Positions 9,152 to 35,817 of a DNA stretch of 64,000 nucleotides are shown piece after piece. The stretch lies in contig JBDRNT010000069.1 in NCBI GenBank assembly GCA_043810925.1, forward strand, positions 34,352 to 98,351, read 5' to 3'. Within the stretch, counting starts at the first letter, position 1. The number at the start of each line of letters is the position of its first letter. This stretch comes from Candidatus Eiseniibacteriota bacterium (GTDB lineage: Bacteria; Arandabacterota; Arandabacteria; Arandabacterales; Arandabacteraceae). Under the pieces are notes generated by a model. The model was not told the origin of the DNA. It saw only the letters and a list, made by a program, of their open reading frames with translations, and searched no databases. A program made the position numbers and the translations under genes.

Positions 9152-9152
<1 letters not shown>
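8034..9152 (-). CDS. DUF362 domain protein with a C-terminal 2x[4Fe-4S] ferredoxin domain.
   Basis: N-terminal DUF362-like region. The C-terminus carries two Cys clusters, CTGCGDCEAMCP and CTSCLCCHEACA. Confidence 0.6.
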
Positions 9153-12646
<3,494 letters not shown>

Positions 12647-18500: not shown

Positions 18501-18685
18501 ACACGCACCGGTACTACTTCAAGGTACTGTATCCTGTACTGGGGCGGCTCGGTCTCGATGTAAGGACTGACGGAACCTTCCTTCTCCGCGCACTGAAGGC
18601 ATGCGAAGGTCACAAACAGAATGCCCAGAGCGAGAGCCCTTCTCTTTCTTCGACTCATAATCAGATACCCCCAATCGCCTTTCAA
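15563..18685 (-). CDS. Large surface/secreted protein built from tandem bacterial Ig-like (Big_1/invasin-like) domains, 1,040 aa.
   Basis: N-terminal signal or lipoprotein-like peptide. At least eight roughly 90-aa repeats with a recurring ...ATV.ASYG.....V.F... pattern. Its start overlaps the pilQ stop by 4 nt. Confidence 0.65.
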   Translation of the reverse strand: MKGDWGYLIMSRRKRRALALGILFVTFACLQCAEKEGSVSPYIETEPPQYRIQYLEVVPVRVDPGGTADVEVRVVDLDNDPVVGHDLVFEVTYGAIESPGITDENGIVRVVYTAPYGTVQETIRATGRSLVPKEVFLQVGAGALEASPMSILADGMSYSMLSIDLVNQSGAPVKGALITWDVDPAKGVITDAVSRTDSTGQASAVLVSLPSVNDVVATVTAWITYGDVEPYAEVVDVDMRGVSVLVVADPDDLPADGTSVSYVAAWVGETTSGVPLATVPVTFTTTLGAIDAMAYTNANGVAAVYLYSPTSPGVATVVASYGLMTGTAYVTFGGLAINVTAELTRMPADGLSSQYVTATLLGEGNNPVSGVSVDFATSDGVITGSAVTDFYGNADVLLTSADYPATATVIASFGDALADTVQVTFVGLNLTLKAQMPKMVADGISSQTVRTTLVTQDGNPVEGASIQLTTSAGMIAGSAITNSYGKAEAELTSASTVGSATVAASYRGLYQDAIVVGFETPVIVLKATPMAISADPANISLITAYVSFTDGSPVPDGTPVTFSTTEGTITPSSATGSGIADVELVPTGIANSNVTVRASSGAAGAATQVVFAPDVASFVSAYALPDSLPGDGSSTATIVAEVTDEYGNRVADGTVVSFTVSAGNGIVTPIGLTVGGIATAKFIPTGGSATATVTAMCEKATHDVGIRLLSGSSGAIVADPDTAWIAVAGTWDESQVTVLAHVYDSHSNPVADGTDVSFTIQAGPGGGEYLNDPADGYGPIIKPTFGGVASITVNSGTKPGTVLMTITSGDYAAAATKIGISAGDPDSILLQVGEVVINGDGTYTLGVSAIVRDQFNNPVENGTAVYFTLDRSDLGFINPETYTGSSYPCAELSGDPIKGITRACLTYGTESIFEYGTIIASTWGGETQSSASYGITLPIVDAALSIEAFPSSLSGAAGGVVNIQVVCWDHYNLLPVDKAYIGFSIEGAGSVSPYFGTTDESGSAYTTVTIPPGTEEGTTTVKAKLFMTTVEAAIDITITP
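16100..17900 (-). repeat. Tandem in-frame array of ~285-nt repeats coding for Ig-like domains (within the CDS).
   Basis: Recurrent peptide modules (ATVVASYGLMTGTAYVTFGGL / ATVIASFGDALADTVQVTFVGL / ATVAASYRGLYQDAIVVGFET) inside the 1,040-aa ORF. Boundaries are approximate. Confidence 0.5.
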
Positions 18686-19989: not shown

Positions 19990-20690
19990 TCACCCTCTTC
20001 TGCAAGTTCCAAAGTTACCGATTTCGTCAAATCGAAAATCGTTATGGAAAAAGTAATTGAAGCCGGGGTTACGGATACTACGCTCCCATTGATCACCCTG
20101 TCACCGACCCTCAGTGCGTAGCTTCTTCCTCCGTCATCCTCCAGCAGGGCTATAATCCCGGATTCACCCCACACAGATCCCACCATCGTGGCTCCGGACA
20201 CGTCCAGCATCCTACTGCCTCTCTCCATGCCCGTCGCAACCAGTGAGTAGAAGGGGTCTCTCAGGAAGGCGGCTGTGTAAGCTGTGGCCGTCTCCCTGCT
20301 GAGGTCGATGTTGTCGGCGACATCAGGCAAAGCAGCGGCGGTATCAGGCAGGGCCTCCACCGCCGGTTCGGACTCAGGGGCGGTCTGGGCCACTTCATCC
20401 ACTTCTCCAGCCGCAGCCTCAGTCGGTGCCATCGTGTTCATGATGGTGGAACCGGAGAAGATATCACCCTTTGACGGTGCCTTGTCATGCGAACTGCTGT
20501 ATTCGGCCGGCTCCCGGACTGCGCTGTCGCCAGCCCCCAGAAGGAACTCCGTCACCTGGTTAACAGCAAAACTCATGATCTTCTGATGTCCACCAAAAAC
20601 AACGAACACGATGATGCCAACCGCCGCCAGCGGAATCGCTAGGCGCCCGCCTCTGAAAAACTTGATAAACTCTGGCACTTTTGCTGGCAT
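19983..20690 (-). CDS. pilP: Type IV pilus assembly protein PilP-like.
   Basis: Position between pilO and pilQ. N-terminal transmembrane anchor, Ala/Pro-rich linker and a C-terminal beta-domain. Confidence 0.6.
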   Translation of the reverse strand: MPAKVPEFIKFFRGGRLAIPLAAVGIIVFVVFGGHQKIMSFAVNQVTEFLLGAGDSAVREPAEYSSSHDKAPSKGDIFSGSTIMNTMAPTEAAAGEVDEVAQTAPESEPAVEALPDTAAALPDVADNIDLSRETATAYTAAFLRDPFYSLVATGMERGSRMLDVSGATMVGSVWGESGIIALLEDDGGRSYALRVGDRVINGSVVSVTPASITFSITIFDLTKSVTLELAEEGEW

Positions 20691-20708
20691 TTGTTCATAC
20701 TCCTTCGG

Positions 20709-21326
20709 CTATCTCGTACCCTCTGTCGTCGGAGCCTCTGTTCCCGCCGCAGTTCCCGCCTGGTTTACGTTGTATGTGTATGCTGAAACCGTTGCAGAAG
20801 CCTCAACGGTCTCGGGTTCCTCGCCTGCTGCAATCTGTATGATGCTTATCTCCGAAAGCCCTACAAGCCTCTCCATGTTGCACATATTGTCGAAGAATCT
20901 CCCGACCTCGTGGTATCCGCCTGTCACGCTGACGCTGATGGGATACCTTGTGTAGAGATCATACAGTTCCGGAGCCTCGGGTTCGAAAAGAACAAACTCG
21001 ACGCCGGCCTTCATACCTGCCGTCGTCACGTCGCTCAGAAGCATGCTCATCTCGCTGGCTAACGGCAGGAGTCCCCGGAGTACTTCCCACTTGTGTTCGA
21101 GCATCTTCAGCTCTTCCTTGATCTTGGGAAGTGTCCGTACGGCTGACTCAAGGACGCGGAGCTCGCCGGTAACGACCTGCAGTTCCTGCCTTAGCTCGTG
21201 CACCTCTTTCGCAGATCGCTTTTGCGAGAAGGGCAGATAGGACGTGAAGAATATGAGCCAAACCAGGGCGATGACAACGATAAAGCCGACCAAGCCTTTG
21301 TGGATATACGGTTCGCGTAGGTTCAT
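20709..21326 (-). CDS. pilO: Type IV pilus assembly protein PilO.
   Basis: Single transmembrane helix, coiled coil and a PilO-like C-domain. Context pilN-pilO-pilP. Confidence 0.7.
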   Translation of the reverse strand: MNLREPYIHKGLVGFIVVIALVWLIFFTSYLPFSQKRSAKEVHELRQELQVVTGELRVLESAVRTLPKIKEELKMLEHKWEVLRGLLPLASEMSMLLSDVTTAGMKAGVEFVLFEPEAPELYDLYTRYPISVSVTGGYHEVGRFFDNMCNMERLVGLSEISIIQIAAGEEPETVEASATVSAYTYNVNQAGTAAGTEAPTTEGTR

Positions 21327-21892
21327 GAGCCTTCCCCAGCCTTCTTTTGAGTTTTGACGTGATAACCAAGATCAAAGCCAAGCACCGGGGTACCCTGCAT
21401 GTCTTCCTTCCTTATTACCCGCAGAAAGACCGAATCGGTGTGTGTCTTGGCCTCAAGTGCATCCATGAACCGGGAGATCGCCAGGTTCGAGAATGCCCAT
21501 CCTCTGACCTGAGCCGCACCCCCGTTTTCCTGGAATCTCTGCAGCCAGACATACTCAGGCACGCTTCGCGCCAGCTCGTCAAGAAGATGAACCCTCAAAC
21601 GACGATTCTGATCCAGGGTCTCAATCACGCCGATGCGCTGGGTGATCTCTCTTCTCTTGACGGTCAGCGCATCAACCAGAGCGGCCTGCTCTCGATACTT
21701 CTCTTGCTCGGCGACCGCTTCTCCGATTTCCGACTTCAGTGAGGAGATTTCATACGAGCGGAATATGTGTAAGCCGGCGCCTACTATGAGCACCAGTGCC
21801 GCTCCTATCAGCGTCCATACGAATATCTTACCCCAGGTTACAGCTGCTCCGGAGGGCTTCTCCTCTCTCGGCAGGAGGTTTATTCTCACCAT
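21323..21892 (-). CDS. pilN: Type IV pilus assembly protein PilN.
   Basis: Hallmark INLLPRE N-terminus, then a single transmembrane helix and a coiled coil. Confidence 0.8.
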   Translation of the reverse strand: MVRINLLPREEKPSGAAVTWGKIFVWTLIGAALVLIVGAGLHIFRSYEISSLKSEIGEAVAEQEKYREQAALVDALTVKRREITQRIGVIETLDQNRRLRVHLLDELARSVPEYVWLQRFQENGGAAQVRGWAFSNLAISRFMDALEAKTHTDSVFLRVIRKEDMQGTPVLGFDLGYHVKTQKKAGEGS

Positions 21893-21895
21893 AGG

Positions 21896-22942
21896 TTAGC
21901 TCCCTTGTCTTGTGGCAAGTCCTATCGCCACCATCAACGACGGCCCAATGGCGATCGGATCCGCTTCCAGGATCTCCTCTTGACACTCCACATTTCTGAG
22001 GGGATTTGCCAGATCGACCTCGACCGACAGTTTCTCACCGAGGAATGATCGCAACCCTGCTATACGGGCGCCCCCTCCACTCAGAAAGATCTTGTCGACG
22101 GCCTCGGCCTCCCCCGAAGATCTCAGGTAGGAAAAAGACCTCTCAACAGCGATACTCAGGTCTTCGCCTACAGTTTCGATTGCCTTGAGTACCCCTTCGG
22201 GCTTTGCACCGGGAACACCCTCCAGTGCCGCCCTGGCCTCTTCGGAGGTTATGCCCAACCTTCGCTGCATACCTTCAACAAAGGTCTCCCCTCCGAACTG
22301 GATATCCCTGTTGAAAATGGGGATCCCGTTGCGCACGATCCCGATGTTGGTCGCGCTCAGGCCTATATCTATCAGGGCGTAAACCTTGTCCTGCTCATAT
22401 TCGTAGTTGAGTTCGTAGGCGTTCTGCACGGCGAACGTATCAATGTCTATGATCGCCGGGATCAGGTCAGCATCCCTCAGGAGCTCGACGTGAGAGAGGA
22501 CCTTGTCCTTCTTGGCCGCTACAAGGAGAACCTCCATCGTGTTGGCCGCCAGCCCGCGCCTCAGTATCTCAAAGTCTACCGACAGTTCCTCTTGCTCAAA
22601 CGGCACGTATTGCTCAGCTTCCAGAGTCATCACTTCGCGTGCGGTTTCATCATCCATCTCGTCCATCTTGATCTTCTTTATGATCACGGAGCGCCCGCAG
22701 ATTGCGCTGACGACTTCCTTGTTGGTGATTTCCTTTTCTTCGAACACTTCCTTGATCGCAGTGACCACGGCATCGCGGTCCATGGGCTCACCATCGACGA
22801 TGGCCCCGGGCAGAAGCTTCTTCACGCCGACCTTGGTTATCTCACTGCCCGCCGCCGTCTGTTTCATCTCTACTACCTTGATGGCGTAACTTCCAACATC
22901 CAGTCCGATAGTGCTCTTCTGCTTCTTGCTAATTAGCGGCAT
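21896..22942 (-). CDS. pilM: Type IV pilus assembly protein PilM (actin-like ATPase fold).
   Basis: PilM-like sequence (IGLDVGSYAIKVVE..., DIGLSATNIGIV, GGGARIAGL). Confidence 0.85.
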   Translation of the reverse strand: MPLISKKQKSTIGLDVGSYAIKVVEMKQTAAGSEITKVGVKKLLPGAIVDGEPMDRDAVVTAIKEVFEEKEITNKEVVSAICGRSVIIKKIKMDEMDDETAREVMTLEAEQYVPFEQEELSVDFEILRRGLAANTMEVLLVAAKKDKVLSHVELLRDADLIPAIIDIDTFAVQNAYELNYEYEQDKVYALIDIGLSATNIGIVRNGIPIFNRDIQFGGETFVEGMQRRLGITSEEARAALEGVPGAKPEGVLKAIETVGEDLSIAVERSFSYLRSSGEAEAVDKIFLSGGGARIAGLRSFLGEKLSVEVDLANPLRNVECQEEILEADPIAIGPSLMVAIGLATRQGS

Positions 22943-23151: not shown

Positions 23152-24474
23152 CTAGCGCTCATTCTGACCTCTATCTGAGATGTCTCCCGATTGCCTACTT
23201 GGTCCAGCCTTTCTTTCTATCGGCATCGATATTCCGGCACTGAAGAGAAATGAATCTCCCCTCTTCTCGACCCTGATCCGGTGACTGTCGGAAGGCAGTG
23301 ACTTCAGGAGCAGCAGGCCTGCTTCCCTGCGGAGACGGTTATCCGCTGCAAATTCTCGCAACGAATCACCAATCTCAACAATCGGCCTGGTGGGGCTTTT
23401 CTCGCTTATCGTTACCCCCGCGAGATCTGTTTCGTGGTCTCGCCAGAGAGATGTGCTTATCTCGATCCCGTCGGGACTCTCCTCAAGGCATCCCTGGATC
23501 AGCATCTCAAGACCCATCTCGAACACCTTGCCCACGGTTTTGACTTTAGGAATGCCCGCGCAGAGATTCGTACGTAGCCTCGGGCTGTCAGCTATGTTCT
23601 TTCTTCTCAAGACCGATTCGACCATTCCGTTGAGATCCGCCAGTTCGGTCCGGCTGCTTGACCCACCTTTCGAAACGGCGAAGACCATCATCAGATCGCA
23701 TGTGTGCCTTATTGCACGGGCGAATTCCGCCAGTTGGCCCTCATCCACGCCATCCCGGCCTCCAATATCCTGGATCTCGTCTGCCCGCACCGTAATACCC
23801 GAGATCAGATCGTATGAGTCCAGCACCCCCCTTAGGTAGCTCTCTCGCTCAATCCCGGCCTTGTCATCGGCTGCATGCGCGCGGCTCGACCTCCGGACAT
23901 CATCCAGTTCGGTGAAAACGACGATTATCGCGTCAACACCCGATTCTCCCAGGAGACAGGAAATGCTCGCACCGATGGTCCGTGACATTCCATCAAGGGT
24001 CCTGATTTTTATAGAATTCCGGGCCGAGTTCTGCTTAGTCCTGAAACTCGTTCGGATGAGTGATTCAAGGTCGCCGGCCTCACTGAAGAGGCTGCTCAAC
24101 CTGACCGGGCCGGCCCCAACACCGACGGACGTACCAAGAAGGAGACGTGCCGATGAGTTCATAAGTCCCACCTCACCACCCCTGTCGACCACCATTATCC
24201 CGCTTGTGATCGACTCGATCACAGTTTCACTCAACAGCGCGTAGCGTGCGGCTTTCTTTTCCGCGGTCAAGTACAGCTCCCCAAGCTCGTTACCCTCCCT
24301 GGAGAGCTTTGATACCAGCTGTTTGAAGGTACTGACCAGACCCTCAATGTCTTTCACGTCGCCGTAGCTTGATGAGCTCTGACTCAATTGATGATCACCC
24401 CTTTGTCGATGCGTGGTCCGAGAAAGCAGGCCTCCTAAGAACGCCTGCAATGACGCAGCCAGACCCTTCCTCAT
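23152..24474 (-). CDS. PAS-domain protein with a degenerate histidine-kinase-like C-terminus (pseudo-kinase?).
   Basis: PAS-like segment (LLSETVIESITSGIMVVDRGGEVGLMNSSARLLLG). The C-terminal region resembles the HATPase_c fold but lacks clear H-, G1- and G2-boxes. The start is set at the Met giving an ATGA overlap with the upstream gene; the ORF extends to 24609. Confidence 0.4.
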   Translation of the reverse strand: MRKGLAASLQAFLGGLLSRTTHRQRGDHQLSQSSSSYGDVKDIEGLVSTFKQLVSKLSREGNELGELYLTAEKKAARYALLSETVIESITSGIMVVDRGGEVGLMNSSARLLLGTSVGVGAGPVRLSSLFSEAGDLESLIRTSFRTKQNSARNSIKIRTLDGMSRTIGASISCLLGESGVDAIIVVFTELDDVRRSSRAHAADDKAGIERESYLRGVLDSYDLISGITVRADEIQDIGGRDGVDEGQLAEFARAIRHTCDLMMVFAVSKGGSSSRTELADLNGMVESVLRRKNIADSPRLRTNLCAGIPKVKTVGKVFEMGLEMLIQGCLEESPDGIEISTSLWRDHETDLAGVTISEKSPTRPIVEIGDSLREFAADNRLRREAGLLLLKSLPSDSHRIRVEKRGDSFLFSAGISMPIERKAGPSRQSGDISDRGQNER

Positions 24475-25514
24475 TCCTGATTTTCCCATGGAAATACATA
24501 ATGGACACTGCCGTTTGCCTGGTGGTAGTGCAGCCAGGCTCCTGCGACCGGGGGAACACAGTCGATGAAACCCTCGGCCTCGAGTACCGGAATCGAGTCG
24601 GGATAGCACCCCGTTTTGTCGAAGTACTGGCCGAGTTTTCGTTCGAGGTACCGTCTTGTTCTCCCGGCATCCTGTCTGATCTCGGTTGTGTTGAGCACCG
24701 TTTGCGAGGCTGAATCGAACAGATACGTCCCGCCAAACGGGCCGTCCGGAACCCTGTCCATCAGTCCTCTGTCGACGAGCTCCTGAAGATCAGACGGGAA
24801 CCGTCCGGAACTTTCGCGAAACCGGCCCACCAGTCCCTCGAGCGCTTTTCTCATCTGTTCAAGATGAATGCTCTTGATTGAGTAAAGGGCGTTCTCTTTG
24901 ATTACACTGTTGCTGCTGGAGCGGTAGATCTCTTCCCAGAGTGTAAGCGATATGTCGATGCTCCCCGCTCTTCTGTAGGCGAATGCCGAGAAACGCCTGG
25001 CTATGTCCGGTGAATCATCGAAACGTGAGGCCATTCTGAAATAGTGGCCGGCTTTTGCGTCGTCATCCGCTGAGGTGAAGTAGAGGAATCCCAGATCGAA
25101 GGGCAGTTGCCACTGACCGGGATTGCTGACCATGCCTTTCTTAAGAAGCCGGATCCCCGCGGCCGGTTGGCCCATGTCCTGCGCCAGTACAAACGCCCCG
25201 AACCTGTATGCGCCGACGAAGTTCGGATCGAGGTCGGTTATGGTCGAGAAGATATGCTCGGCCAGCGGATAGTATTTGTCACTCCTGCGGTGCTCGCCAT
25301 AGTACTGAATCCCCTTCAGCCAGAGCAGATCGGATGCCAGTGTCCGGTAACCAAGGCTTGCGATTTGAAGAAATCGTCCCGACGGGAAGTATGTGAGCTC
25401 CTCTTCGATGTCGCCCGCGTAACGCTCGTAATTGAGGGCCACGCTCAGCCCGCAGATCGCAACCACGATCCCGATCAACGCAATCATAAGCACCAGCTTC
25501 CTGACCCTCGTCAC
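24471..25514 (-). CDS. Membrane-anchored TPR-like helical-repeat protein (possible accessory of the adjacent ABC transporter).
   Basis: N-terminal transmembrane helix and helical-repeat content. Overlaps both neighbouring genes by 4 nt. Confidence 0.45.
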   Translation of the reverse strand: MTRVRKLVLMIALIGIVVAICGLSVALNYERYAGDIEEELTYFPSGRFLQIASLGYRTLASDLLWLKGIQYYGEHRRSDKYYPLAEHIFSTITDLDPNFVGAYRFGAFVLAQDMGQPAAGIRLLKKGMVSNPGQWQLPFDLGFLYFTSADDDAKAGHYFRMASRFDDSPDIARRFSAFAYRRAGSIDISLTLWEEIYRSSSNSVIKENALYSIKSIHLEQMRKALEGLVGRFRESSGRFPSDLQELVDRGLMDRVPDGPFGGTYLFDSASQTVLNTTEIRQDAGRTRRYLERKLGQYFDKTGCYPDSIPVLEAEGFIDCVPPVAGAWLHYHQANGSVHYVFPWENQE

Positions 25515-26290
25515 TTGAACTCTCTCCTCTCGAAGACCAGGACCGCGATGATCAGGAAGGCCATCGTGTAAAGCAAAGCATATGAGCTGGCGAATGCCAC
25601 ATAGTGGAAGTCGATCGGTACGTCGTGTATCACCTTACTGCGCACGTTAAGATACTCAAGATTGGGCAGGGTGTAGTAGATCGCCCCAACAACCACTTTG
25701 ACTGAGCCCGACCCGAAGCGTGATGCGAGCTGTTTTAAGTCTGCGCTTGTGTGACCGATCAGGTACAGCAGCAAGGTGAATATGGCCCCCAGGATGGGGG
25801 AACTCAGGGTGGACATCATTACCGAGAGCGCCGTCAGAAGCAAGAGCTCCATCCATGTAAGGAATACCGCGGTCAGGATATGCGGGTGGAAGCTCCCGGC
25901 TGCGACCCAGCTTACGACAACGAGCAGGACGGTCATCATGGCCATCAGAAGACTCACCGTCGCTGTGAGACCGGCGAACTTGCCTATGATGAATTGCCAT
26001 CTGCTGACCGGCTTGGCAATCACCGTATAGATCGTCCGCCTCTCAATTTCCTTGTACACGATGCCTGTCCCGATGAGAACCGCGATCAGGAAGCTCAAGA
26101 CCGAGATGGCGGCAAGACCCATGTCCTGAGTTATGCGTTCCTGCTCCCCCAGTGACAGTGGTGCGATGATGAAACTGCTGGCCAAGATTGCGGCTCCAAA
26201 GATGACAACAGCAACAAACAGACGGTCCCGGACACCTTCTCTGAAGGTGTTACTTGCAAGAGCGACTATTTTCGGAATCACCGTGCTCAT
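25511..26290 (-). CDS. ABC-2 type transporter permease (PilI/GldF-like).
   Basis: Six predicted transmembrane segments and ABC-2 permease features. Overlaps the ATPase gene by 4 nt. Confidence 0.7.
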   Translation of the reverse strand: MSTVIPKIVALASNTFREGVRDRLFVAVVIFGAAILASSFIIAPLSLGEQERITQDMGLAAISVLSFLIAVLIGTGIVYKEIERRTIYTVIAKPVSRWQFIIGKFAGLTATVSLLMAMMTVLLVVVSWVAAGSFHPHILTAVFLTWMELLLLTALSVMMSTLSSPILGAIFTLLLYLIGHTSADLKQLASRFGSGSVKVVVGAIYYTLPNLEYLNVRSKVIHDVPIDFHYVAFASSYALLYTMAFLIIAVLVFERREFK

Positions 26291-27300
26291 CCCGTTGTTT
26301 GCAGAGCTTTCTGAGTTCGTGATTTCTCCTCCTCCGGTTGGCAGACAGGAGATTGAACCTGGCTCATGAAGTAATCCTCAAGCGTCTGTCTATGAGGGAT
26401 CACTGCAGATATCGTCGCGCCGGAGGCGAGCAGTACGCCGACGGCCCGGCTCACATCTGCATCCGGTGTGAGTGAGATCACGGTCTTGTCTCCGTGTTTC
26501 GCAACCTCTCCCAACCCGAGTACAGCAGCTTTCTCCATCTCGAGGCCATCCAGCTGAATCTCCACGCACCTTGTGCTTCCAAGACGCACTTCCGAGATAG
26601 TGGCGATTCTCAATATCTTGCCCTGGGACAATATGCCCACACGATCACAGATGATCTCTACGTCATGCAGGATGTGTGAGCTGAAGAAGACGGTCTTTCC
26701 CTGCATTTTCTGCTGAAGGATCAGGTCGCGGATCTCCCTCCTGCCGACAGGATCAAGCCCGGAAAGCGGCTCATCGAGAATTATGATATCAGGGTCGTTG
26801 ATCAGCGCCTGGGCCAGTCCTATCCGCTGCAGCATTCCCTTTGAGAACTTGGAAAGGGTCGTGTCCCTGGACTCCCAGAGCCCGGTTGCATGAAGCAACT
26901 CCTCCGCCCGGCGCCGCAGCGGTTTCTTCTTCATGCCGCAGACGCCGCCATAGAACTCCAGCAGTTCGACCGCGCTCAGGTGCTGATAGAAGTAAGGTTG
27001 TTCCGGAAGAAACCCGATTCTGCCTTTGATCCCGGCCGAGGTCGACGGTTTGCCGAAGCATGTTACGCTCCCGGCAGAAGCCCGCAGCAGGCCGAGCGCC
27101 AGCTTTACGGTCGTTGTCTTGCCCGCACCATTGGGTCCCAGGTAGCCGAAGACCTCACCCTGCTCTACCTCGAAGCTGACGGGCCCCAGTGTATACATGT
27201 GGCGCCCGATCAGACTTGACCGGAAGACCTTTGAAACGCTGTCGAACTTGAGCACGGACACGTGGATTTCCCCCAGAATTGCTGTTTGAATCCTATGCAT
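26287..27300 (-). CDS. ABC transporter ATP-binding protein (PilH/GldA-like).
   Basis: Walker A GPNGAGKTT, signature LSKGMLQRIGLA and Walker B IIILDEP. The start is set at MHRIQTAIL (27300); the ORF extends to 27414. Confidence 0.8.
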   Translation of the reverse strand: MHRIQTAILGEIHVSVLKFDSVSKVFRSSLIGRHMYTLGPVSFEVEQGEVFGYLGPNGAGKTTTVKLALGLLRASAGSVTCFGKPSTSAGIKGRIGFLPEQPYFYQHLSAVELLEFYGGVCGMKKKPLRRRAEELLHATGLWESRDTTLSKFSKGMLQRIGLAQALINDPDIIILDEPLSGLDPVGRREIRDLILQQKMQGKTVFFSSHILHDVEIICDRVGILSQGKILRIATISEVRLGSTRCVEIQLDGLEMEKAAVLGLGEVAKHGDKTVISLTPDADVSRAVGVLLASGATISAVIPHRQTLEDYFMSQVQSPVCQPEEEKSRTQKALQTTG

Positions 27301-27364
27301 ATGTTCGGCAGGTCTGGTAGATTCCTTTAGAAATTGCGGGGTACCCGGCCGGCTCCCGGGTACA

Positions 27365-27398
27365 AATAAAAAAAAGGTGGCAGCCGAAGCTGCCACCC
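27365..27398 (-). terminator. Rho-independent terminator after pilA.
   Basis: On the minus strand: GGTGGCAGC-TTCG-GCTGCCACC, a perfect 9-bp stem, followed by T8. It lies 23 nt after the pilA stop. Confidence 0.8.
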
Positions 27399-27420
27399 TT
27401 TGTCCGAAGTCCACATCCAG

Positions 27421-27843
27421 CTACATACCGGTCGTCAGTTGGAGCGTGAGCATTGCCGACTTGCCGTAACCTTTGATAACGTAGTCTGTAGTATTAGCCG
27501 GATTGGCTCCGAACACACCCTGCGAAGCGGGATCAGCATCAAACGTTGCCACTGTCGCAGCGCCCGTGAACGGATTGTCCGGATATGCAGCGTCCGGACA
27601 AAGATCCTCGATCGTATCCCCGCCGGGAGTCGTCGAGATCGCAGCGTCAGGATAAACACCGTCGCTCTGAACGGCGAAATCCTCAAACGCCAGCTGGAAA
27701 GTGTGCATGTTTGACTTGACGCTGGCCTCTTTCGCCCTATCTTGCATGCTTATGAAGTTGGGAATCGCTATCGCCGCCAGAATACCGATAATGACGACAA
27801 CGATCATCAGCTCAATCAGAGTAAAACCCTTCTGGTTGAACAT
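27421..27843 (-). CDS. pilA: Type IVa major pilin.
   Basis: Class III signal MFNQKGFTLIELMIVVVIIGILAAIAIPNF; 140 aa; GGAGGTG ribosome-binding site. Confidence 0.9.
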   Translation of the reverse strand: MFNQKGFTLIELMIVVVIIGILAAIAIPNFISMQDRAKEASVKSNMHTFQLAFEDFAVQSDGVYPDAAISTTPGGDTIEDLCPDAAYPDNPFTGAATVATFDADPASQGVFGANPANTTDYVIKGYGKSAMLTLQLTTGM

Positions 27844-27904
27844 TGTCTCTCACCTCCTTCGCTCAGGCTCAACGAGCCTTAATTGGACTCAACCTCGTCT
27901 ATAT

Positions 27905-27920
27905 AGCAATGTCCGTACCA
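27905..27920 (-). promoter_or_regulatory. Sigma54 (-24/-12) promoter for pilA.
   Basis: The minus strand reads cTGGTACggacaTTGCTatat. GG and GC sit at the canonical 10-nt spacing, with one mismatch to the TGGCAC-N5-TTGCW consensus. It lies about 65 nt upstream of the pilA ATG, and a PilR-type sigma54 activator is encoded next door. Confidence 0.6.
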
Positions 27921-28030
27921 GAAACCGAGAGTCGGCAAGTTTCTCGAAGCCCTTGAAGTTACAGCACTTCGAGCCACGGTCCCCGGCAACAAGGACACAC
28001 CACATCCCATCCGTATTGCATATCGCAACG

Positions 28031-29428
28031 CTACGAGTTGTCTTTTGCACTCTCAACCTGCTCACCTATGGTCTTGTCACAGTCGTACCGCTGGAGTTTG
28101 CGGTACAGAGTTGACGCGTTTATGCCCAAAATGTCCGCCGCCCTTTTCTTCCGCCAGCCCGTTTCCTCCAGTATCTTGAGGAGGTACTCCTTTTCGAGTT
28201 CTTCAAGCGTGAGCGTGCTGGTGGCAACTACCGAACCCCTTTTCCCGCTGGTCACGTATCTCAGCTTCTCCGGAATGTCCGTCGGAGTTATGGCATTGCC
28301 GTCCTGCAAGATCAACGCTCTCTCAAGAACGTTTTCAAGCTCGCGCACGTTGCCGGGCCAGTCGTACCTGAGAAGAACCTCAAAGGCATCCGGCGACACC
28401 GTCTTCATGGTCCTATCGGTCGCCTCGCAATAGGTATTGAGGAAATGTTCCACAAGCAGAGGGATATCGTCTTTTCTTTCCCGCAAAGGAGGAATGTGTA
28501 TCGGTATCACGTTAAGCCTGTAGAAAAGGTCCGCTCTGAACTTGCCCGTCTCGACATCCTGCTCGAGATCGGAGTTGGTCGCCGCTATAAGCCGGACATC
28601 AACCTTGATCGGTTTGATCCCGCCGACGGGTATGATCTCGCGCTCCTGCAAAACGCGGAGCAGCTTCACCTGGATGGCGGGTGAGGTCTCTCCCACCTCG
28701 TCGAGGAAGAAGGTCCCCCCTTTGGCCACTGCAAACAGACCTTCCTTGTCGCGCACGGCGCCAGTGAACGATCCCCTTACGTGGCCGAAGAGCTCGCTCT
28801 CCAGCAATGTCTCCGGCAGTGCGCCGCAGTTTATGGAGACGAATTGGCCGTCTACCCTGTTGCTCTTATAGTGGATTTCCCGTGCTATCAGCTCTTTTCC
28901 GGTTCCGCTTTCTCCTGAGATCAGAATGGTCGAATCGCTTACCGCCACCTTGTCTACAAGACCCAGGACCTGCCTAATCTTCTCACTCTTGCCTATGATC
29001 GGTCTCTGCGTGAGACTCTTCTTCAGCTCCTGCTTGAGATACCGGTTTTCCTTCTTGAGCGACCGCACCTCTATGGCCTTTTTCACCATCTGTTTGATTT
29101 CTTCGTTTCTGGCCTGCTTGAGGAGATAGGCGAACGCCCCCTTGTTCACGGCTTCGATTGCGGTCTCCATCGAAGCGTGCCCCGTCATGATGATCACGGG
29201 CACCTGGGGATCGATTTCCTTGATGGCCGTAAGGACTTCAATGCCGTTCATGCCGGGCATCTTCACGTCTGTAATCACTACGTGGAAGCTTTCCTCCTTG
29301 AATCTCTCAATCGCATCCTTGCCGCATTCACACGCCGCAACCTCGTAGCGTTCTTTCCCCAAGAGGATCTTGAGAAATTCTCTCATTCCCTCTTCGTCTT
29401 CAACCACGAGTACTCTTTCATGCCCCAT
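28031..29428 (-). CDS. pilR: Sigma54-dependent response regulator (NtrC family), PilR by context.
   Basis: REC domain (VVEDEEGMRE...DVKMPGMNG), AAA+ sigma54 activator motifs (GESGTGKE, GAFTGA-like ...GSFTGAV..., ESELFGH) and a C-terminal Fis-type helix-turn-helix. Confidence 0.8.
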   Translation of the reverse strand: MGHERVLVVEDEEGMREFLKILLGKERYEVAACECGKDAIERFKEESFHVVITDVKMPGMNGIEVLTAIKEIDPQVPVIIMTGHASMETAIEAVNKGAFAYLLKQARNEEIKQMVKKAIEVRSLKKENRYLKQELKKSLTQRPIIGKSEKIRQVLGLVDKVAVSDSTILISGESGTGKELIAREIHYKSNRVDGQFVSINCGALPETLLESELFGHVRGSFTGAVRDKEGLFAVAKGGTFFLDEVGETSPAIQVKLLRVLQEREIIPVGGIKPIKVDVRLIAATNSDLEQDVETGKFRADLFYRLNVIPIHIPPLRERKDDIPLLVEHFLNTYCEATDRTMKTVSPDAFEVLLRYDWPGNVRELENVLERALILQDGNAITPTDIPEKLRYVTSGKRGSVVATSTLTLEELEKEYLLKILEETGWRKKRAADILGINASTLYRKLQRYDCDKTIGEQVESAKDNS

Positions 29429-29434
29429 ACGAGA

Positions 29435-31159
29435 TCACTCCACTCTGGTTATTGAGGTCCCGGCAAGTCTGTCTGAAGACGCCGCTCTCGCGGAGCCATG
29501 CTCAACTGTCATTTTATCCAGAGGCAGGCATACGGTGGCAACCGTGCCGACGCCTCTCGTGCTCTCTATCTCAAGTCTGCCGCCATGGTCCTCGACGATC
29601 TTGGCAGCGATTGCAAGACCCAATCCCGTACCACTGTCTTTGCTTGTGTAGAAGGGTTCAAAGATCCGGCCCAGTTGGTCCTCGTCGATTCCCGCGCCGT
29701 TGTCTTCGAAACTGATCCGTGCATAGTCTCCGCCATGCCCGGACTTCGTGACATCCAGTCTGATGCTGACCTTTCCCGGTCCGTCCAGAGCCTCAACAGC
29801 ATTGATCGCGAGATTGTAGAAGACCTGCTTCATGGTCTCCTCATCCACCCAGGCGTCCGTGGCGGTATCTGCGACAAGATCTATAGACGTCTGGTCGTCG
29901 AAGTGCGGGTGGTTTCTCACCAGGCACACGACCTCGGCCAGGATCGAACGGAGACAGACTTCGCGGAACTTCGCAGGGCGTGAGCTCGCGAATTGCAGGA
30001 AGTAGTCTATCTTCTTCCTGAGTCTGTCAGACTCCTTTATCACGAGGTCGATTATCTTCCCATCCTCACCCTCGGGGACCAGCAGGTCCCGGAGCATCTC
30101 AATCGATCCACAGATCGAGGCCAGCGGCGTCCTGATCTCATGTGCGATACCGGCCGATAGCTCTCCCAGCGCGGCAAGTCGATCCGCGAGCCTGATCTTA
30201 TGGGCCATAGTCTTGACTTCGGTCAGATCCTGAAAGACCACGACTGCACCGCATGCGCTGCGCTCGGCCCCGCTCAAGAGAGAAACACTTATGCCGAGCG
30301 GGATTGTCCTGCCCGTGGCCGTGGTCGCAATAACTTCACCTCTGTCTTCATGTGTACCGTTTTTGACCGCGTCTACGATTTTCTTGCAGAGTTCGGGGGC
30401 GACCGCCTCCATGATGTCCCTGACGTTTCGTCCCGTAGCCTGCTCAGGACCTATCCCGAGAATTCTTGAGGCCGACTGATTAAACTCCGTGATTACACAG
30501 CCTGAATCCACGGTCACAAGCCCGCTGTTCATGCTCTCTATGATCAGGCGTGTATCCAACCTCGCCCGTTCGAGCTCGCTCGTCGTCGACCTGAGCTTTG
30601 CCCCGACAAACTTGATCCTGCGGGATACGTACCCGGCAAGTATCGCAATCAGGTAAAAGAAGGCCACCTGGAGCACGATATTGAGAACAGCGTACACCGG
30701 CCGGGTCTGAATGGCGGCTGGCCCGGGTGAACTTTGAAGGTGAGCTCTCTCGAGCAGTGACACACCTGCAAAGACTGCCGACGACAGCGTCGCCGCAACG
30801 ACGGCACCTCTACCATTGAGCAGCACGCCCGCAAGAAAGATCGTGATCAGGAAGAAGACCGCAAAGTGACTCTGGGCCCCTCCCGTGAAGTAGACAATGC
30901 CGCCCTCGACCGCAAGATCCGCTACGAGCTGTGAGTACACAAGCGGCCGCACGCCATAGCCTGACTTGAAGACAAGCCACCAGAATGCGCTGAGCGGGAA
31001 CACCACAACCAGGAGGCCCGCCACCGGAAGGCCGCTCCTGATATCAAGTCCGGCACCTGTAAGGAATGCCATCACGGACAGGGCCACGCCGATGCAGATC
31101 ACCCGCAGGATGATCATCGTCCGGCACAGACTTCGCAGATCCCGTTCTTCTACCATCAT
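29435..31159 (-). CDS. pilS: Sensor histidine kinase (membrane domain, PAS, HisKA, HATPase), PilS by context.
   Basis: Several N-terminal transmembrane helices. H-box GIAHEIRTPLASICGSIEML. G-boxes DNGAGIDE and GTGLGLAIAAKIVEDHGG. Confidence 0.75.
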   Translation of the reverse strand: MMVEERDLRSLCRTMIILRVICIGVALSVMAFLTGAGLDIRSGLPVAGLLVVVFPLSAFWWLVFKSGYGVRPLVYSQLVADLAVEGGIVYFTGGAQSHFAVFFLITIFLAGVLLNGRGAVVAATLSSAVFAGVSLLERAHLQSSPGPAAIQTRPVYAVLNIVLQVAFFYLIAILAGYVSRRIKFVGAKLRSTTSELERARLDTRLIIESMNSGLVTVDSGCVITEFNQSASRILGIGPEQATGRNVRDIMEAVAPELCKKIVDAVKNGTHEDRGEVIATTATGRTIPLGISVSLLSGAERSACGAVVVFQDLTEVKTMAHKIRLADRLAALGELSAGIAHEIRTPLASICGSIEMLRDLLVPEGEDGKIIDLVIKESDRLRKKIDYFLQFASSRPAKFREVCLRSILAEVVCLVRNHPHFDDQTSIDLVADTATDAWVDEETMKQVFYNLAINAVEALDGPGKVSIRLDVTKSGHGGDYARISFEDNGAGIDEDQLGRIFEPFYTSKDSGTGLGLAIAAKIVEDHGGRLEIESTRGVGTVATVCLPLDKMTVEHGSARAASSDRLAGTSITRVE

Positions 31160-31170
31160 TCTCCCGCGCC

Positions 31171-32391
31171 TTACTCCGCCATTATCACGCTTACTAACTT
31201 GAATATCGGAAGGTACATCGCAACGACCATACCTCCGACCACACCACCCATCATCACGATCATGATGGGCTCGATAACCGACGTCATTGCATCCACAGCA
31301 CTATCGACCTCGTCGTCGTAAAAATCGGCTACCTTGGATAGCATCTCGTCCAGGGCGCCGGTTTCCTCTCCAACCGAGATCATCTGTACTACCATCGGAG
31401 GAAAGACCCCCGATTCCCTAAGTGGGCCGGCAATCGTCTGTCCGGACGAGATGCTTGCCCGGGTTTTCACCACAGCGTTCTTTACTATCGTGTTGCCGGC
31501 TGCCTTCGCCGTTATGTCGAGCCCCTCGAGTATCGGGACACCGCTACTGACGAGTGTCCCCAACGTTCTTGTGAACCGTGCGATGGAAGCCTTGAGCAGC
31601 ACGTCACCCAGAACCGGTACGCGCAGCATCATTCTGTCAATAGCTGCCTTGCCCTTTTCAGTGGCGTAGTACTTCTTGATACCGACGACGCCTCCGACCA
31701 CCATTGCAGCGAGCAACCACCACTTGGTTCTGAGGAAGGAGCTCAGGGCCATCACGATCTTGGTCGGTGCCGGTAGTTCACCTCCGAAATCGGAGTACAT
31801 CTTTGCGAACGTTGGAATAATGAACACCAGCATGAAGGCAGTTGCCGCTATCGTTACGACAAGCACGACGCCCGGATACATCATCGCGCTTTTTACCTTG
31901 CGTTTCAGGCTGTCCATCTTCTCCAGGTAGCTCGCCAGACGCGCAAGGATCACGTCAAGCACTCCACCGGCCTCTCCCGCTTCCACCATGTTGACATAGA
32001 GATCGGTGAACACCGCCGGGTGCCGCGAAAGCGCATCGGCGAGTGTCGATCCTGCTTCTACGTCTCTCATGGTCTGGGATATCAACTTCCTGAAGTGGTC
32101 TCTCTCTGCCTGCTTCCCAAGAATGTCGAGACATTGGACAAGAGGAAGTCCTGAGTTGATCATTGTGGAGAACTGCCGTGTGAAGACCGCGAGATCCTTG
32201 GTGGAGACACCTCTCTCCCGGCTCATACCCAATCTCAGCCCCTTGGCTTTCGCCTTGGCCGAGGTCATGGTTACGCGCTTCTTCTTGAGGCTTAGTATGA
32301 GATCGGCCCTCGAACCGGCCTGCATCTCCCCGCTGATTACGTCTCCTGTTGCTGTCTTACCCTTCCAGACATACGTGGTCGCCAAGATCAA
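31171..32391 (-). CDS. pilC: Type IV pilus platform protein PilC (GspF family).
   Basis: Two T2SSF repeats and 406 aa. Typical PilC sequence (FTRQFSTMINSGLPLVQCLDIL...). Confidence 0.9.
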   Translation of the reverse strand: MILATTYVWKGKTATGDVISGEMQAGSRADLILSLKKKRVTMTSAKAKAKGLRLGMSRERGVSTKDLAVFTRQFSTMINSGLPLVQCLDILGKQAERDHFRKLISQTMRDVEAGSTLADALSRHPAVFTDLYVNMVEAGEAGGVLDVILARLASYLEKMDSLKRKVKSAMMYPGVVLVVTIAATAFMLVFIIPTFAKMYSDFGGELPAPTKIVMALSSFLRTKWWLLAAMVVGGVVGIKKYYATEKGKAAIDRMMLRVPVLGDVLLKASIARFTRTLGTLVSSGVPILEGLDITAKAAGNTIVKNAVVKTRASISSGQTIAGPLRESGVFPPMVVQMISVGEETGALDEMLSKVADFYDDEVDSAVDAMTSVIEPIMIVMMGGVVGGMVVAMYLPIFKLVSVIMAE

Positions 32392-32400
32392 CCGCCCCCT

Positions 32401-33507
32401 TTATTTGACGTAGGACCTATCCTTGGTCTTGAGATTGTCCGCGGACCTGCCCCTGGACAGCATCTGCTCCAGCTCCGCCAGGTCGGCGCTTCTGCCCATC
32501 GCATCCTCCAAGGATATCTGTCTGGTCACATAGAGCCTGTACAGTGCCTGGTTCATGGTCTGCATGCCGTACTTCTGTCCCGCCTGCATCAGTGAGTAGA
32601 TCTGGTGCACCTTCTTCTCCCGGATCAGTGCGTTTATCGCCGGAGTGCACACGAGAACCTCTGCGGCGAGGACTCTGCCCTTATCACCGAGCTTCGGTAG
32701 AAGCTGCTGCGTTATCACGCCTGTGAGTACGAATGCCAACTGGGCGAGCACCTGCCCCTGCTGATACTCCGGGAAGACATCGACGATTCTGTTGATGCTC
32801 TCGTAGGTTGAGTTGGTATGCAGGGTAGCAAGCGTCAGATGGCCGGTCTCCGCAATTGTGAGCGCTGCCGCGATCGTCTCCAGGTCCCTCATCTCACCTA
32901 TCAGGATCACATCGGGATCCTGCCTGAGGACATACTTCAGAGCGTTGGGAAAGGTGTGGGTGTCCGCCCGGACCTCTCGCTGGTTGACAATCGAATTCTT
33001 GTGTTGGTGTATGTATTCGATCGGATCCTCGATAGTGACGATATGACAGCTTCGCTCCGTGTTCACCTTGTTGATCATCGAGGCAAGTGTGGTGGACTTG
33101 CCGCATCCCGTCGGACCTGTCACCAGTATCAGGCCTTTCTGCTTTTTGGAGAAGTCGTTGACCACGGGCGGAAGCCCGAGCTCTTCGAAGCTCAGGATCT
33201 CGTATGGAATCTGCCTGAATGCCGCCGTGGTCACGCCTCTCTGGTAAAAGACGTTTGCCCTGAACCGGCTCAAGCCCTGTATCCCGAATGAAAAATCGAG
33301 CTCCAGGTCGATCTCAAACCGCTTTCGCTGTTCGTCATTCAGGATGCTGTAGATGATCTGCTTCGTCACCTCGGGCGTGAGATGCTCCGTGTCTGCCGAC
33401 ACAAGATGACCATCCACCCTGAACTGGGGAGGCAGTCCGGCAGTTATGTGCAGATCGGAAGCCCTCATCTTCACCATCTGTTCCAGCAACTCGCGTAGCA
33501 CTATCAT
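32401..33507 (-). CDS. pilT: Twitching motility ATPase PilT.
   Basis: GPTGCGKSTTLASMI Walker A, Asp/His boxes, and a C-terminal AINALIREKKVHQIYSLMQAG...GMQTMNQAL motif typical of PilT. Confidence 0.9.
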   Translation of the reverse strand: MIVLRELLEQMVKMRASDLHITAGLPPQFRVDGHLVSADTEHLTPEVTKQIIYSILNDEQRKRFEIDLELDFSFGIQGLSRFRANVFYQRGVTTAAFRQIPYEILSFEELGLPPVVNDFSKKQKGLILVTGPTGCGKSTTLASMINKVNTERSCHIVTIEDPIEYIHQHKNSIVNQREVRADTHTFPNALKYVLRQDPDVILIGEMRDLETIAAALTIAETGHLTLATLHTNSTYESINRIVDVFPEYQQGQVLAQLAFVLTGVITQQLLPKLGDKGRVLAAEVLVCTPAINALIREKKVHQIYSLMQAGQKYGMQTMNQALYRLYVTRQISLEDAMGRSADLAELEQMLSRGRSADNLKTKDRSYVK

Positions 33508-33526
33508 CTCATCTTCCTCCGGTCAC

Positions 33527-35230
33527 TTATGTGTCACTCGCGGTCTCTCTCAGCACTTCCTCAACCGTTGTGAGGCCGGCCTTGAGTTTGAGTAGAGCAT
33601 CCTGGCGGAGCGTAAGCATCCCTTCGTCCACAGCCTGTTTCTTGAGTTGGTCGCTGGGGGCCCTGTCGAGTATCAGCGTCCTTATGGCCGGGCTTATCGG
33701 CATGATTTCGTATACGCCCTGCCGGCCGGCATAGCCCGTATCGCTGCATTTCGAGCACCCGCGCCCCTTGTAAAACCGGATGCCCTTCGCCTCCGACATC
33801 GGGATACCAAGCTCTCTGAGGGCCTCGGGATGAGCCTCTACCTCGGACTTGCACCGGGAACATACCTTCCTCAGAAGCCTCTGGGCCAGAACGAGATTGA
33901 GCGAGGCTGCGACAAGAAACGGCTCGACTCCCATGTCGACCAGCCTGTCCATTGTGCTCGGCGCATCGTTTGTGTGTACGGTCGAGAGGACAAGGTGTCC
34001 GGTGAGAGCCGCCTTAACAGCTATGGAGCCCGTGTCCGAGTCCCGGATCTCACCGACCATGATCACATTGGGATCCTGGCGGAGAAACGCCCGCAACGAC
34101 TTCGCGAACGTAAGGCCTATCTCTTCGTGGATCTGGACCTGGTTTATGCCGTCTATGTTATACTCAACGGGATCCTCCGATGTCATGATGTTGACGTCAG
34201 GCCGGTTGATTCTGTTCAAGGCTGAATAGAGGGTGGTTGTCTTTCCGCTGCCGGTTGGCCCTGTCACGAGCACCAATCCGTAGGGAGCATCGATGGCCCG
34301 CGTAAGGTTATGGAGGGCGTTCTCCTCCATGCCGAATTGAGCTAGGTCAAGGGCCAGGTTGCCTTTGTCCAGTATTCTCATTACGATCTTTTCGCCGAAT
34401 ATCGTCGGAAGTGAAGATACCCTGAGGTCTATTGTCTTCTTGTCCACTCGGATCTTTATTCTGCCGTCCTGAGGGAGCCGTCTTTCGGCTATGTCGAGAT
34501 CCGACATAACCTTGATCCTTGATATGATGGCCGACTTCATCTTGGCCGGCTGCTTGATCACTTCATGGAGGGTTCCGTCGATTCTGAAACGCACCCGGAA
34601 GATCTTCTCGGCGGGCTCGATATGTATATCACTTGCGCGCTTCTTGACCGCATCGGCGATCACGGAGTTCACGAATCTTATGACGGGAGCCTGTTCGGCC
34701 TCTTCCAGGCCTTCTTCGTCGTCGTCACTCTCTTCGAGTACTTCAACGTCCTGATCGTCAAGGTCCCTGGCCATATCCTCAAGATCATCTTTGGCCGTGT
34801 AGTGCTGCTCGATGGCGGATGCAAGCGAGATTTCGGTGGCCACCATTGGCTTGATTTCAAGCCCGGTTATGAACTTCAGGTCATCTATAGCACACATATC
34901 AGTCGGGTCGGCCATCGCCAGGGCAAGTGTCCTCCCGTGCTTCTGAACCGGCACAACCGTGTACTTCGATGCCACCTCTGCGGGAACGAGCCTTATCACC
35001 GCCTGGGGGATCTCGATACTTAAGGGATTGACCGCATCGACCGAGTAGATGTGTGCAAGAAACTCCAGCACCCGCTCTTCCGACATGAGACCCAGCTTTA
35101 CCAGTGCTCTCTGTAGTGAGATGCCGGCGTTTTCGGCCTCGCGCGCCACTGCGGAAATCTCGTCGCCCTTAAGCAGGCCAAGATCCGCCAGTTTCTCTAA
35201 GATGTCGGTCTTAAGTACCATGTTAGACAA
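33527..35230 (-). CDS. pilB: Type IV pilus assembly (extension) ATPase PilB.
   Basis: N-terminal GSPII/T2SSE_N domains, Walker A GPTGSGKTTTL and a tetracysteine motif (CSRC...CSKC). Confidence 0.9.
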   Translation of the reverse strand: MSNMVLKTDILEKLADLGLLKGDEISAVAREAENAGISLQRALVKLGLMSEERVLEFLAHIYSVDAVNPLSIEIPQAVIRLVPAEVASKYTVVPVQKHGRTLALAMADPTDMCAIDDLKFITGLEIKPMVATEISLASAIEQHYTAKDDLEDMARDLDDQDVEVLEESDDDEEGLEEAEQAPVIRFVNSVIADAVKKRASDIHIEPAEKIFRVRFRIDGTLHEVIKQPAKMKSAIISRIKVMSDLDIAERRLPQDGRIKIRVDKKTIDLRVSSLPTIFGEKIVMRILDKGNLALDLAQFGMEENALHNLTRAIDAPYGLVLVTGPTGSGKTTTLYSALNRINRPDVNIMTSEDPVEYNIDGINQVQIHEEIGLTFAKSLRAFLRQDPNVIMVGEIRDSDTGSIAVKAALTGHLVLSTVHTNDAPSTMDRLVDMGVEPFLVAASLNLVLAQRLLRKVCSRCKSEVEAHPEALRELGIPMSEAKGIRFYKGRGCSKCSDTGYAGRQGVYEIMPISPAIRTLILDRAPSDQLKKQAVDEGMLTLRQDALLKLKAGLTTVEEVLRETASDT

Positions 35231-35436
35231 CCAATCGGTAACCGTTCCAATGTGAGAACCCTGGCACCACTATAGTGCAATACACATACCAGTCTCCGGT
35301 GTGCAAAACCTTGCCCCAAACTGGTATGAATTCCCCAAAATGCCACAAAGGACTGAGAGCATTCGCTGGTCGCATAACGCCGGCAATGCAATTGTGGATT
35401 GCAACTTGCAGAACGTGTTGCAGAGTGCAACGGCTC

Positions 35437-35817
35437 TTATTCACCTGGAAGACTTTCACCACCACCTGCGCAGACGTATTTCCTGATCACGGCCAGGGTC
35501 TTTTCACCGATACCTTTGACCTGCACCAGGTCTTCCACCTTTTCAAACAGTCCGTTCCGGTCGCGCCACTCGATTATTGCCCCCGCCCGTGTCGGCCCGA
35601 TGGAAGGCAGCGCCATAAGCTCTTCCCGGGTGGCGGTGTTTATGTCCAGCACGACATACTCGTGCCGTGACTGATCGCATGAATCTGAAGTCTCCTTCTG
35701 GTTTTCCCCTGGGAGAGTGCGTCCCGTCTTCTCCCACCCCAGTACGCCGGTTAAGATGCCGACTGTTACTGTGATGACTAAGATCGCGCCAGCAAGTCTT
35801 TCCCGGCCATTCACCAC
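35437..35817 (-). CDS. comEA: ComEA-like helix-hairpin-helix DNA-binding competence protein.
   Basis: Transmembrane or signal anchor plus a C-terminal tandem HhH (DINTATREELMALPSIGPTRAGAIIEWRDRNGLFEKVEDLVQVKGIGEKTL). Confidence 0.8.
   Translation of the reverse strand: MVNGRERLAGAILVITVTVGILTGVLGWEKTGRTLPGENQKETSDSCDQSRHEYVVLDINTATREELMALPSIGPTRAGAIIEWRDRNGLFEKVEDLVQVKGIGEKTLAVIRKYVCAGGGESLPGE

Follow-up and report, generated by a model that had tools for sequence, protein, structure and literature searches.

The 64-kb stretch of Candidatus Eisenbacteria DNA analysed here (the window) very probably carries a type IVa pilus (T4aP) supercluster in which a transporter trio of the PilH, PilI and PilG type is followed by a pseudokinase derived from a PilS2-type histidine kinase. 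All genes of the cluster lie on the minus strand and encode, in the direction of transcription, a ComEA-like protein, PilB, PilT, PilC, PilS, PilR, PilA, an ABC ATPase, an ABC-2 permease, a tetratricopeptide repeat (TPR) membrane protein, a PAS protein, PilM, PilN, PilO, a PilP-like protein, PilQ and a Big_1 protein. The order from pilB to pilQ had been proposed in an earlier note made from the DNA letters, and domain calls from Pfam and NCBIfam confirmed both this order and the gene identities, with PilP assigned by position. The same note had placed the whole cluster at 23152-35817; pilMNOPQ, at 18682-22942, falls outside this range. The four genes between pilA and pilM are as follows.

26287-27300 (listed open reading frame (ORF) 26287-27414), minus strand: PilH-like ABC ATPase, 337 amino acids from the ATG at 27300; Pfam ABC_tran
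25511-26290, minus strand: PilI-like ABC-2 permease, 259 amino acids; Pfam ABC2_membrane_2
24471-25514, minus strand: PilG-like bitopic membrane protein, 347 amino acids; homology to Myxococcus PilG
23152-24474 (listed ORF 23152-24609), minus strand: predicted soluble coiled-coil/PAS/DHp/CA-like histidine pseudokinase, 440 amino acids; weak Pfam PAS hits and fold

The transporter trio beside pilA

An M. xanthus PilA sequence led to a Myxococcus pilin of 95% identity and, from there, to the pil locus of Myxococcus sp. AB036A (L083; loci are given by L numbers), which was used as reference. Its gene order is pilS-pilR-pilA-pilG-pilH-pilI-pilD-pilS2-pilR2-pilMNOPQ, with a PilG of 303 amino acids that has no Pfam match, and with PilH (ABC_tran), PilI (ABC2_membrane_2), PilD (Peptidase_A24), PilS2 (HisKA/HATPase_c) and PilR2 (sigma-54 activator) assigned by their domains. 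Pairwise comparison of the window ATPase with Myxococcus PilH gave 37% identity over 297 amino acids (E 6e-70), and the permease aligned with PilI over 250 of its 259 amino acids at 32% identity (E 7e-42). BLASTP of the PilG-like protein against Myxococcus PilG led to 24% identity over 263 amino acids (E 2e-20), and a hidden Markov model (HMM) of the PilG-like family matched the Myxococcus PilG ORF with 72 bits (E 1.3e-20). The BLAST and HMM comparison with PilG/H/I that the earlier note had proposed was therefore positive for all three proteins, and judged from these alignments the ATPase, the permease and the TPR protein are clearly homologues of PilH, PilI and PilG.

The position of the trio agrees as well. 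Both in the window and in Myxococcus it sits between pilA and pilM, as compared across 82 related loci, but its order is H-I-G in the window and in every FCB-group locus examined, and G-H-I in Myxococcus. The M. xanthus pil locus (Wu et al. 1998; PMC6060248, PMC3724824), has the same layout of pilB-T-C-S-R-A, three accessory genes and pilMNOPQ, and in M. xanthus as in the window the PilR sigma-54 activator is encoded just upstream of pilA. The Myxococcus-style layout with a PilG/H/I-like transporter between pilA and pilMNOPQ, as read in the earlier note, is thus borne out by the comparison with L083 and by the homology of the three proteins.

When the PilG-like family was scanned with one genome per species, 219 matches were obtained, and the counts of loci given in the following were taken from the best 80 of these 219. 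The best 80 came from metagenome-assembled genomes (MAGs) of Eisenbacteria, WOR-3, Gemmatimonadota and Cloacimonadota (Cloacimonetes), with no Myxococcus- or Geobacter-named genome among them; the host here is an FCB-group candidate phylum, in contrast to the Myxococcota of the reference locus. By tblastn synteny, 63 of the 64 loci with sufficient flanking DNA have the ATPase and permease genes right before the PilG-like gene, and the remaining one, L077, missed the distance threshold by 13 nt. A pilA-like gene was present upstream of the trio in 34/48 loci, and two distant short homologues sit in the same pilA-ABC-ABC-PilG-like-pilMNOPQ context. The trio is fixed beside pilin genes in several phyla of the FCB group. 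When 1.84 billion representative proteins were searched with a profile of the PilG-like family, 9,420 relatives had E<=1e-3, and 3,038 of them reached E<=1e-10. In WOR-3 loci (L017, L019, L020, L024, L028, L032 and others), pilins were observed on both flanks of the trio (pilA-ABC-ABC-PilG-pilA), and pilD follows pilQ-pilT.

The PilG-like protein gave no Pfam or NCBIfam match, for its C-terminus not even in Pfam at E<=10. Its sequence matches a hypothetical protein from a Candidatus Eisenbacteria MAG at 100% identity, many of its homologues are labelled as TPR proteins by JGI, and its family shares the motif WL[RKQ][AG][VI]QYYG. The AlphaFold model (predicted local distance difference test (pLDDT) 90) led to an N-terminal transmembrane helix, a TPR-like domain, for which TPR folds were also matched by structure, and two C-terminal modules; basic residues ahead of the helix argue for a periplasmic location of the body. 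Residues ~203-347 are modelled as two tandem modules, each a long helix with a beta hairpin and each carrying G-R-x-P...P-x-D-P-F-G-G-x-Y, with a GspG-like signature of G-x-x-x-x-x-P-x-D-P-F-G-G-x-Y. In a search of the C-terminal profile against PDB sequences, six of the top eight matches were major pseudopilins of the type II secretion system (GspG, EpsG, PulG), aligned on the GspG signature GYIRRLPQDPWGGDY with weak E values of 0.017-0.5. Myxococcus PilG has one pseudopilin-like module compared to the two predicted here, and many relatives have none. We take the pseudopilin-like nature of the modules as a lead only.

The PAS protein and the slot after the PilG-like gene

At least 36 proteins of 410-446 amino acids, with identities down to ~36%, make up the family of the PAS protein. 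Pfam analysis across the 36-member family found PAS domains only, and in the pseudokinase no HisKA or HATPase_c match was obtained even at E<=10, the C-terminal half included; a transmembrane segment was likewise not detected in the protein. The AlphaFold model is nevertheless that of a histidine kinase, with a coiled coil (residues 38-80), a PAS domain (92-189), a DHp-like hairpin (198-273) and a CA-like alpha/beta domain (277-416; pLDDT ~90). Best Foldseek matches were full-length histidine kinases, with WalK, LOV kinases, ThkA and HK853 at E down to 1.6e-16, and the non-canonical DivL, RetS and plant phytochromes were also among the structural matches. On profile alignment the phospho-acceptor His of the kinase 'IAHE' motif falls on Ile208, a variable column with His in 0 of the 36 members, and the Mg-ATP Asn of the N-box on the invariant Gly328. 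The G1 box (DxGxG) aligns to E358-K-S-P-T and the G2 box (GxGLGL / GxGxG) to R-R-E-A-G-L. Both halves of the protein, including the CA-like one, carry residues that are invariant in the family. The prediction of a pseudokinase that keeps a kinase fold and lacks the H, G1 and G2 boxes is supported by the PAS-DHp-CA model and the profile alignment, and the realignment proposed together with it revealed no normal H-box.

As to its origin, the HMM of the pseudokinase family found its best matches outside the family among kinases at the PilS2 position, with alignments from the coiled coil ahead of the PAS domain onward; PilS proper aligns across the PAS domain only. Homology over coil, PAS, DHp and CA was found for the PilS2-position kinases of seven loci (L016, L018, L026, L030, L037, L041, L052), and hhalign of the family against these seven kinases led to 99% probability (E 3e-18) over 362 columns, which is the whole protein. 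The likeness is hence to the second, PilS2/PilR2-type two-component system, from which the pseudokinase differs in that it lacks transmembrane and periplasmic parts, the phospho-acceptor His, the N, G1 and G2 boxes and an adjacent regulator gene: pilR is the sole PilR-type gene in the window, and no second one was found there. From these alignments the PAS protein appears to descend from a PilS2-type kinase and not from pilD.

The earlier note had described the PAS kinase as standing in place of pilD and the cluster as devoid of a prepilin peptidase. The latter holds for the entire 64 kb, as the peptidase motif G.GD.K was absent from all frames, tblastn with Myxococcus PilD found nothing at E<=1e-3, and Pfam searches of the remaining large ORFs gave no Peptidase_A24. 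As the PilA leader is canonical, pilD must presumably sit elsewhere in the genome. For the former, the synteny of the slot is in agreement, but the origin of the gene is not: it corresponds to the PilS2-type kinase encoded behind pilD in relatives. In 21 related loci, pilD was detected as the next gene after the PilG-like one, and in seven loci a PilS2/PilR2-like pair lies within 2.5 kb after the PilG-like gene. L030 and L052 show PilG-like gene, PilD, kinase, regulator and pilM in succession, which is the Myxococcus arrangement. The pseudokinase follows the PilG-like gene in ten loci, all of them close relatives; compared with Myxococcus, the window lacks pilD and pilR2 and has the pseudokinase at the pilS2 position.

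Shortened forms of the gene were also observed. In L009 (1898-2548) and L011 (10990-11646) only coil and PAS are retained (~210 amino acids), and the L015 copy (10993-11839) has an internal deletion or frameshift; the kinase-like half thus seems dispensable or in decay. In the more distant relatives L001, L002 and L062 the gene is absent from the slot. Together, these loci suggest a decay series from an intact PilS2/PilR2 pair to an orphan pseudokinase, a coil-PAS stub and finally no gene.

A separate observation concerns the cysteines of the family. Cys173 in the PAS sheet is invariant and Cys329 in the CA-like helix nearly so, and by eye no Cys is present in the aligned PAS stretch of the PilS2-like kinases. 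Judged from this pattern, the residues may point to redox or metal sensing.

Remaining cluster genes and expression signals

The other features of the cluster are listed in the direction of transcription.

35437-35817, minus strand: ComEA-like helix-hairpin-helix protein, 126 amino acids, just 5' of pilB (putative pilus link); Pfam HHH_3, 7.9e-19
33527-35230, minus strand: pilB, pilus extension ATPase; TIGR02538, 717 bits (cut-off 676), Pfam T2SSE and MshEN
32401-33507, minus strand: pilT, retraction ATPase; TIGR01420, 486 bits (cut-off 319)
31171-32391, minus strand: pilC, platform protein; two Pfam T2SSF, 1.6e-68
29435-31159, minus strand: pilS, intact sensor histidine kinase; Pfam 6TM_PilS, PAS, HisKA, HATPase_c
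28031-29428, minus strand: pilR, sigma-54-dependent response regulator; Pfam Response_reg, Sigma54_activat, AAA_lid_14, HTH_8
27905-27920, minus strand: sigma-54-type promoter TGGTAC-N5-TTGCT; motif match, 62-77 nt upstream of the pilA ATG
27421-27843, minus strand: pilA, major pilin, 140 amino acids; Pfam N_methyl 1.2e-10, N-terminus matching NF041775, GspG and the TIGR02532 domain
27372-27401, minus strand: intrinsic terminator 3' of pilA; 13-bp stem followed by a T run
21896-22942, minus strand: pilM; Pfam PilM_2, 3.6e-67
21323-21892, minus strand: pilN; Pfam PilN, 2.8e-15
20709-21326, minus strand: pilO; Pfam PilO, 1.7e-28
19983-20690, minus strand: PilP-like protein, 235 amino acids; assigned by position only, kept between pilO and pilQ in relatives
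18682-19989, minus strand: pilQ, short secretin without AMIN domains, 435 amino acids; TIGR02515, 312 bits (cut-off 284), Pfam Secretin, Secretin_N, STN
15563-18685, minus strand: Big_1 protein, 1040 amino acids, seven Big_1 repeats (putative pilus link); Pfam Big_1 in seven stretches, 3e-62

With the exception of pilD, the T4aP gene set of the cluster is complete. The PilA leader, MFNQKG followed by FTLIELMIVV, is a short class III leader with Gly at -1, Phe at +1 and Glu at +5. The PilP-position protein gave no Pfam or NCBIfam match, and PilQ, with 435 amino acids and no AMIN domain, differs from the 901-amino-acid PilQ of Myxococcus.

By sequence motifs, a sigma-54-type promoter precedes pilA and a strong terminator follows it. 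TGGYAC-N5-TTGCW occurs as a single match in the 64 kb compared to 0.05 expected, and the motif was also found 5' of the first pilA in seven relatives (L003, L005, L006, L008, L010, L012, L013). The GTG at 27414 was ruled out as start of the ATPase gene because the terminator (27401-27372) falls inside that ORF; translation probably begins at the ATG at 27300. The three 4-nt overlaps named in the earlier note are present: ATGA between ATPase stop and permease start (26287-26290), GTGA between permease stop and PilG-like start (25511-25514) and ATGA between PilG-like stop and pseudokinase start (24471-24474), the third of which requires the ATG at 24474 as start of the pseudokinase. The identical NCBI protein (ABIJ00_06245, encoded next to the PilG-like protein in the MAG) has 411 amino acids, with an implied start 29 codons downstream; the longer form is favoured because its N-terminus is kept in homologues of 85% and 71% identity. 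Between pseudokinase and pilM there is a gap of 209 nt.

Several neighbouring genes may be connected with the pilus. The start of the Big_1 gene overlaps the pilQ stop by 4 nt, and eight close relatives (L004-L006, L010, L011, L013-L015) likewise encode a Big_1 (invasin/intimin-like Ig) protein right behind pilQ. Possibly this is a surface protein associated with the pilus. A DprA gene (DNA_processg_A and DprA_WH, 9152-10288) was found ~8 kb beyond pilQ, and together with the ComEA-like protein 5' of pilB it hints at a pilus possibly serving DNA uptake. The window also contains type IX secretion genes, PorV-like (58613-59626) and PorU-like Peptidase_C25 (59633-63661), consistent with an FCB-group host. 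Rfam and tRNA scans of the window detected no RNA genes.

Alternative readings, proposed role and significance

The trio could also be an unrelated exporter, for polysaccharide or of the NosFY or GldAFG type, that merely adjoins pilA. The best NCBIfam matches of the ATPase are the drrA and, as second-best, GldA families, the permease falls into the broad ABC2_membrane_2 family, and the ABC genes adjoining pilA in Geobacter, which have been linked to exopolysaccharide export, would be a case of this kind. The flavobacterial gliding transporter GldA/GldF/GldG likewise has, besides its ABC ATPase and ABC-2 permease, an accessory membrane protein, and is connected to a surface-motility machine. 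However, the ATPase stays below every curated NCBIfam exporter cut-off (GldA 195 vs 403 bits, drrA 202 vs 312 bits), the permease matches no defined NCBIfam family, and neither the permease nor the PilG-like protein gave a GldF or GldG match. Moreover, all three proteins specifically match Myxococcus PilH, PilI and PilG, and ATPase and permease are tied to the PilG-like gene in essentially all loci, usually together with pilins and in several phyla. The earlier note would have given up the PilG/H/I assignment for a defined exporter family without similarity to PilH/PilI; as this similarity is present, we regard the unrelated exporter as very unlikely.

For the PAS protein, two other fates have to be considered. 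It might still be active as an unorthodox kinase or phosphotransfer protein, for example via the invariant Asp219 (YLRGVLDSYD) or the near-invariant His398, and the many invariant residues kept in the DHp- and CA-like halves down to ~36% identity, as well as the confidently modelled CA-like domain, would fit such an activity. With no HisKA/HATPase_c match at E<=10, an invariant Gly instead of the Mg-ATP Asn, replaced G1 and G2 boxes and no adjacent response regulator gene, this is highly improbable. Alternatively, it may be a non-functional relic on its way to loss, as the catalytic motifs and the partner regulator are gone and stubs, a broken copy and empty slots occur among the relatives. 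We consider the relic unlikely, since a frame of 410-446 amino acids is kept in at least 36 sequences, which diverge to ~36% identity and still share invariant positions in both halves, and the overlap of its start with the upstream stop suggests co-expression.

Several points weigh against the proposed PilHIG-type trio with a PilS2-derived pseudokinase. ABC ATPases are generally alike, so that the case for orthology of the ATPase with PilH comes mostly from its linkage to PilI and PilG; the gene order differs from Myxococcus, and the identity to PilG is only 24%. BLASTP of the pseudokinase against Myxococcus PilS2 was not significant, the link being made through the FCB-group kinases at the PilS2 position, and the broken versions in L009, L011 and L015 may mean that the kinase-like half is decaying and not functional. 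The absence of pilD is established within the 64-kb window only, and the functions of the cluster genes, PilGHI and the pseudokinase included, are those we infer.

With these points in mind, the supercluster with its trio and pseudokinase may be explained as follows. PilS would activate PilR, so that pilA is transcribed from the sigma-54 promoter, and the terminator after pilA would separate off a PilH-PilI-PilG-pseudokinase operon with overlapping start and stop codons. According to PMC3724824 and PMC5544727, which cite Wu et al. (1998), single deletion of pilG, pilH or pilI in M. xanthus abolishes pili, S-motility and exopolysaccharide (EPS). By analogy to these genetics, PilH, PilI and PilG would assemble into an ABC-2 complex of the inner membrane that is required for exporting pilins or building the pilus, and the periplasmic TPR and pseudopilin-like modules of PilG may be where it contacts pilins or the assembly machinery. 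The ancestral layout would have been pilA-(H,I,G)-pilD-pilS2-pilR2-pilMNOPQ. From there, pilD would have been relocated, pilR2 lost and pilS2 degraded to the pseudokinase in this sub-clade.

If the pseudokinase acts at all, it would work via its coiled-coil/PAS half and protein-protein contacts, without phosphotransfer. DivL from Caulobacter (PMC4211667), PsmA from Streptomyces (PMC12963549) and RetS from Pseudomonas also have a histidine-kinase fold without catalytic capacity, and pseudokinases of this type signal via protein-protein contacts (PMC4211667, PMC12963549). The window protein is related to them by fold only, and a regulatory role here is conjecture; by analogy to DivL and RetS (PMC4211667) it might modulate another component via its PAS/DHp surfaces, or else be a relic. 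One could go further and regard the PilG family as periplasmic TPR proteins with one or two GspG-like pseudopilin heads, PilGHI as an ABC-2 machine that handles pilins physically or primes the base of the pilus, and the operon of the Eisenbacteria clade as having captured the PilS2-derived pseudokinase as a PAS sensor that works without phosphorylation and adjusts pilus assembly. We put this forward as speculation that is quite unlikely to hold in full.

The Myxococcus-style supercluster and PilGHI as such are already known, and have been reported in other 'deltaproteobacterial' lineages (PMC6060248). New are the presence and strict conservation of the PilGHI system in FCB-group candidate phyla, its H-I-G order and the domain description of PilG, as well as a PilS2-derived pseudokinase that takes the place of pilD-pilS2-pilR2 in one sub-clade of Eisenbacteria. 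The Myxococcus layout including PilGHI is therefore not limited to Myxococcota and their relatives, but reaches Eisenbacteria, WOR-3, Gemmatimonadota and Cloacimonadota, and the relatives of the window show a two-component system in stepwise decay. This is a result on annotation and evolution that leaves the understanding of type IV pili unchanged; its value lies in the annotation and in a lead on PilG function. PilG can now be defined by a transmembrane helix, a TPR domain, the family motif and optional pseudopilin-like modules, which gives a concrete starting point for the role of PilGHI.

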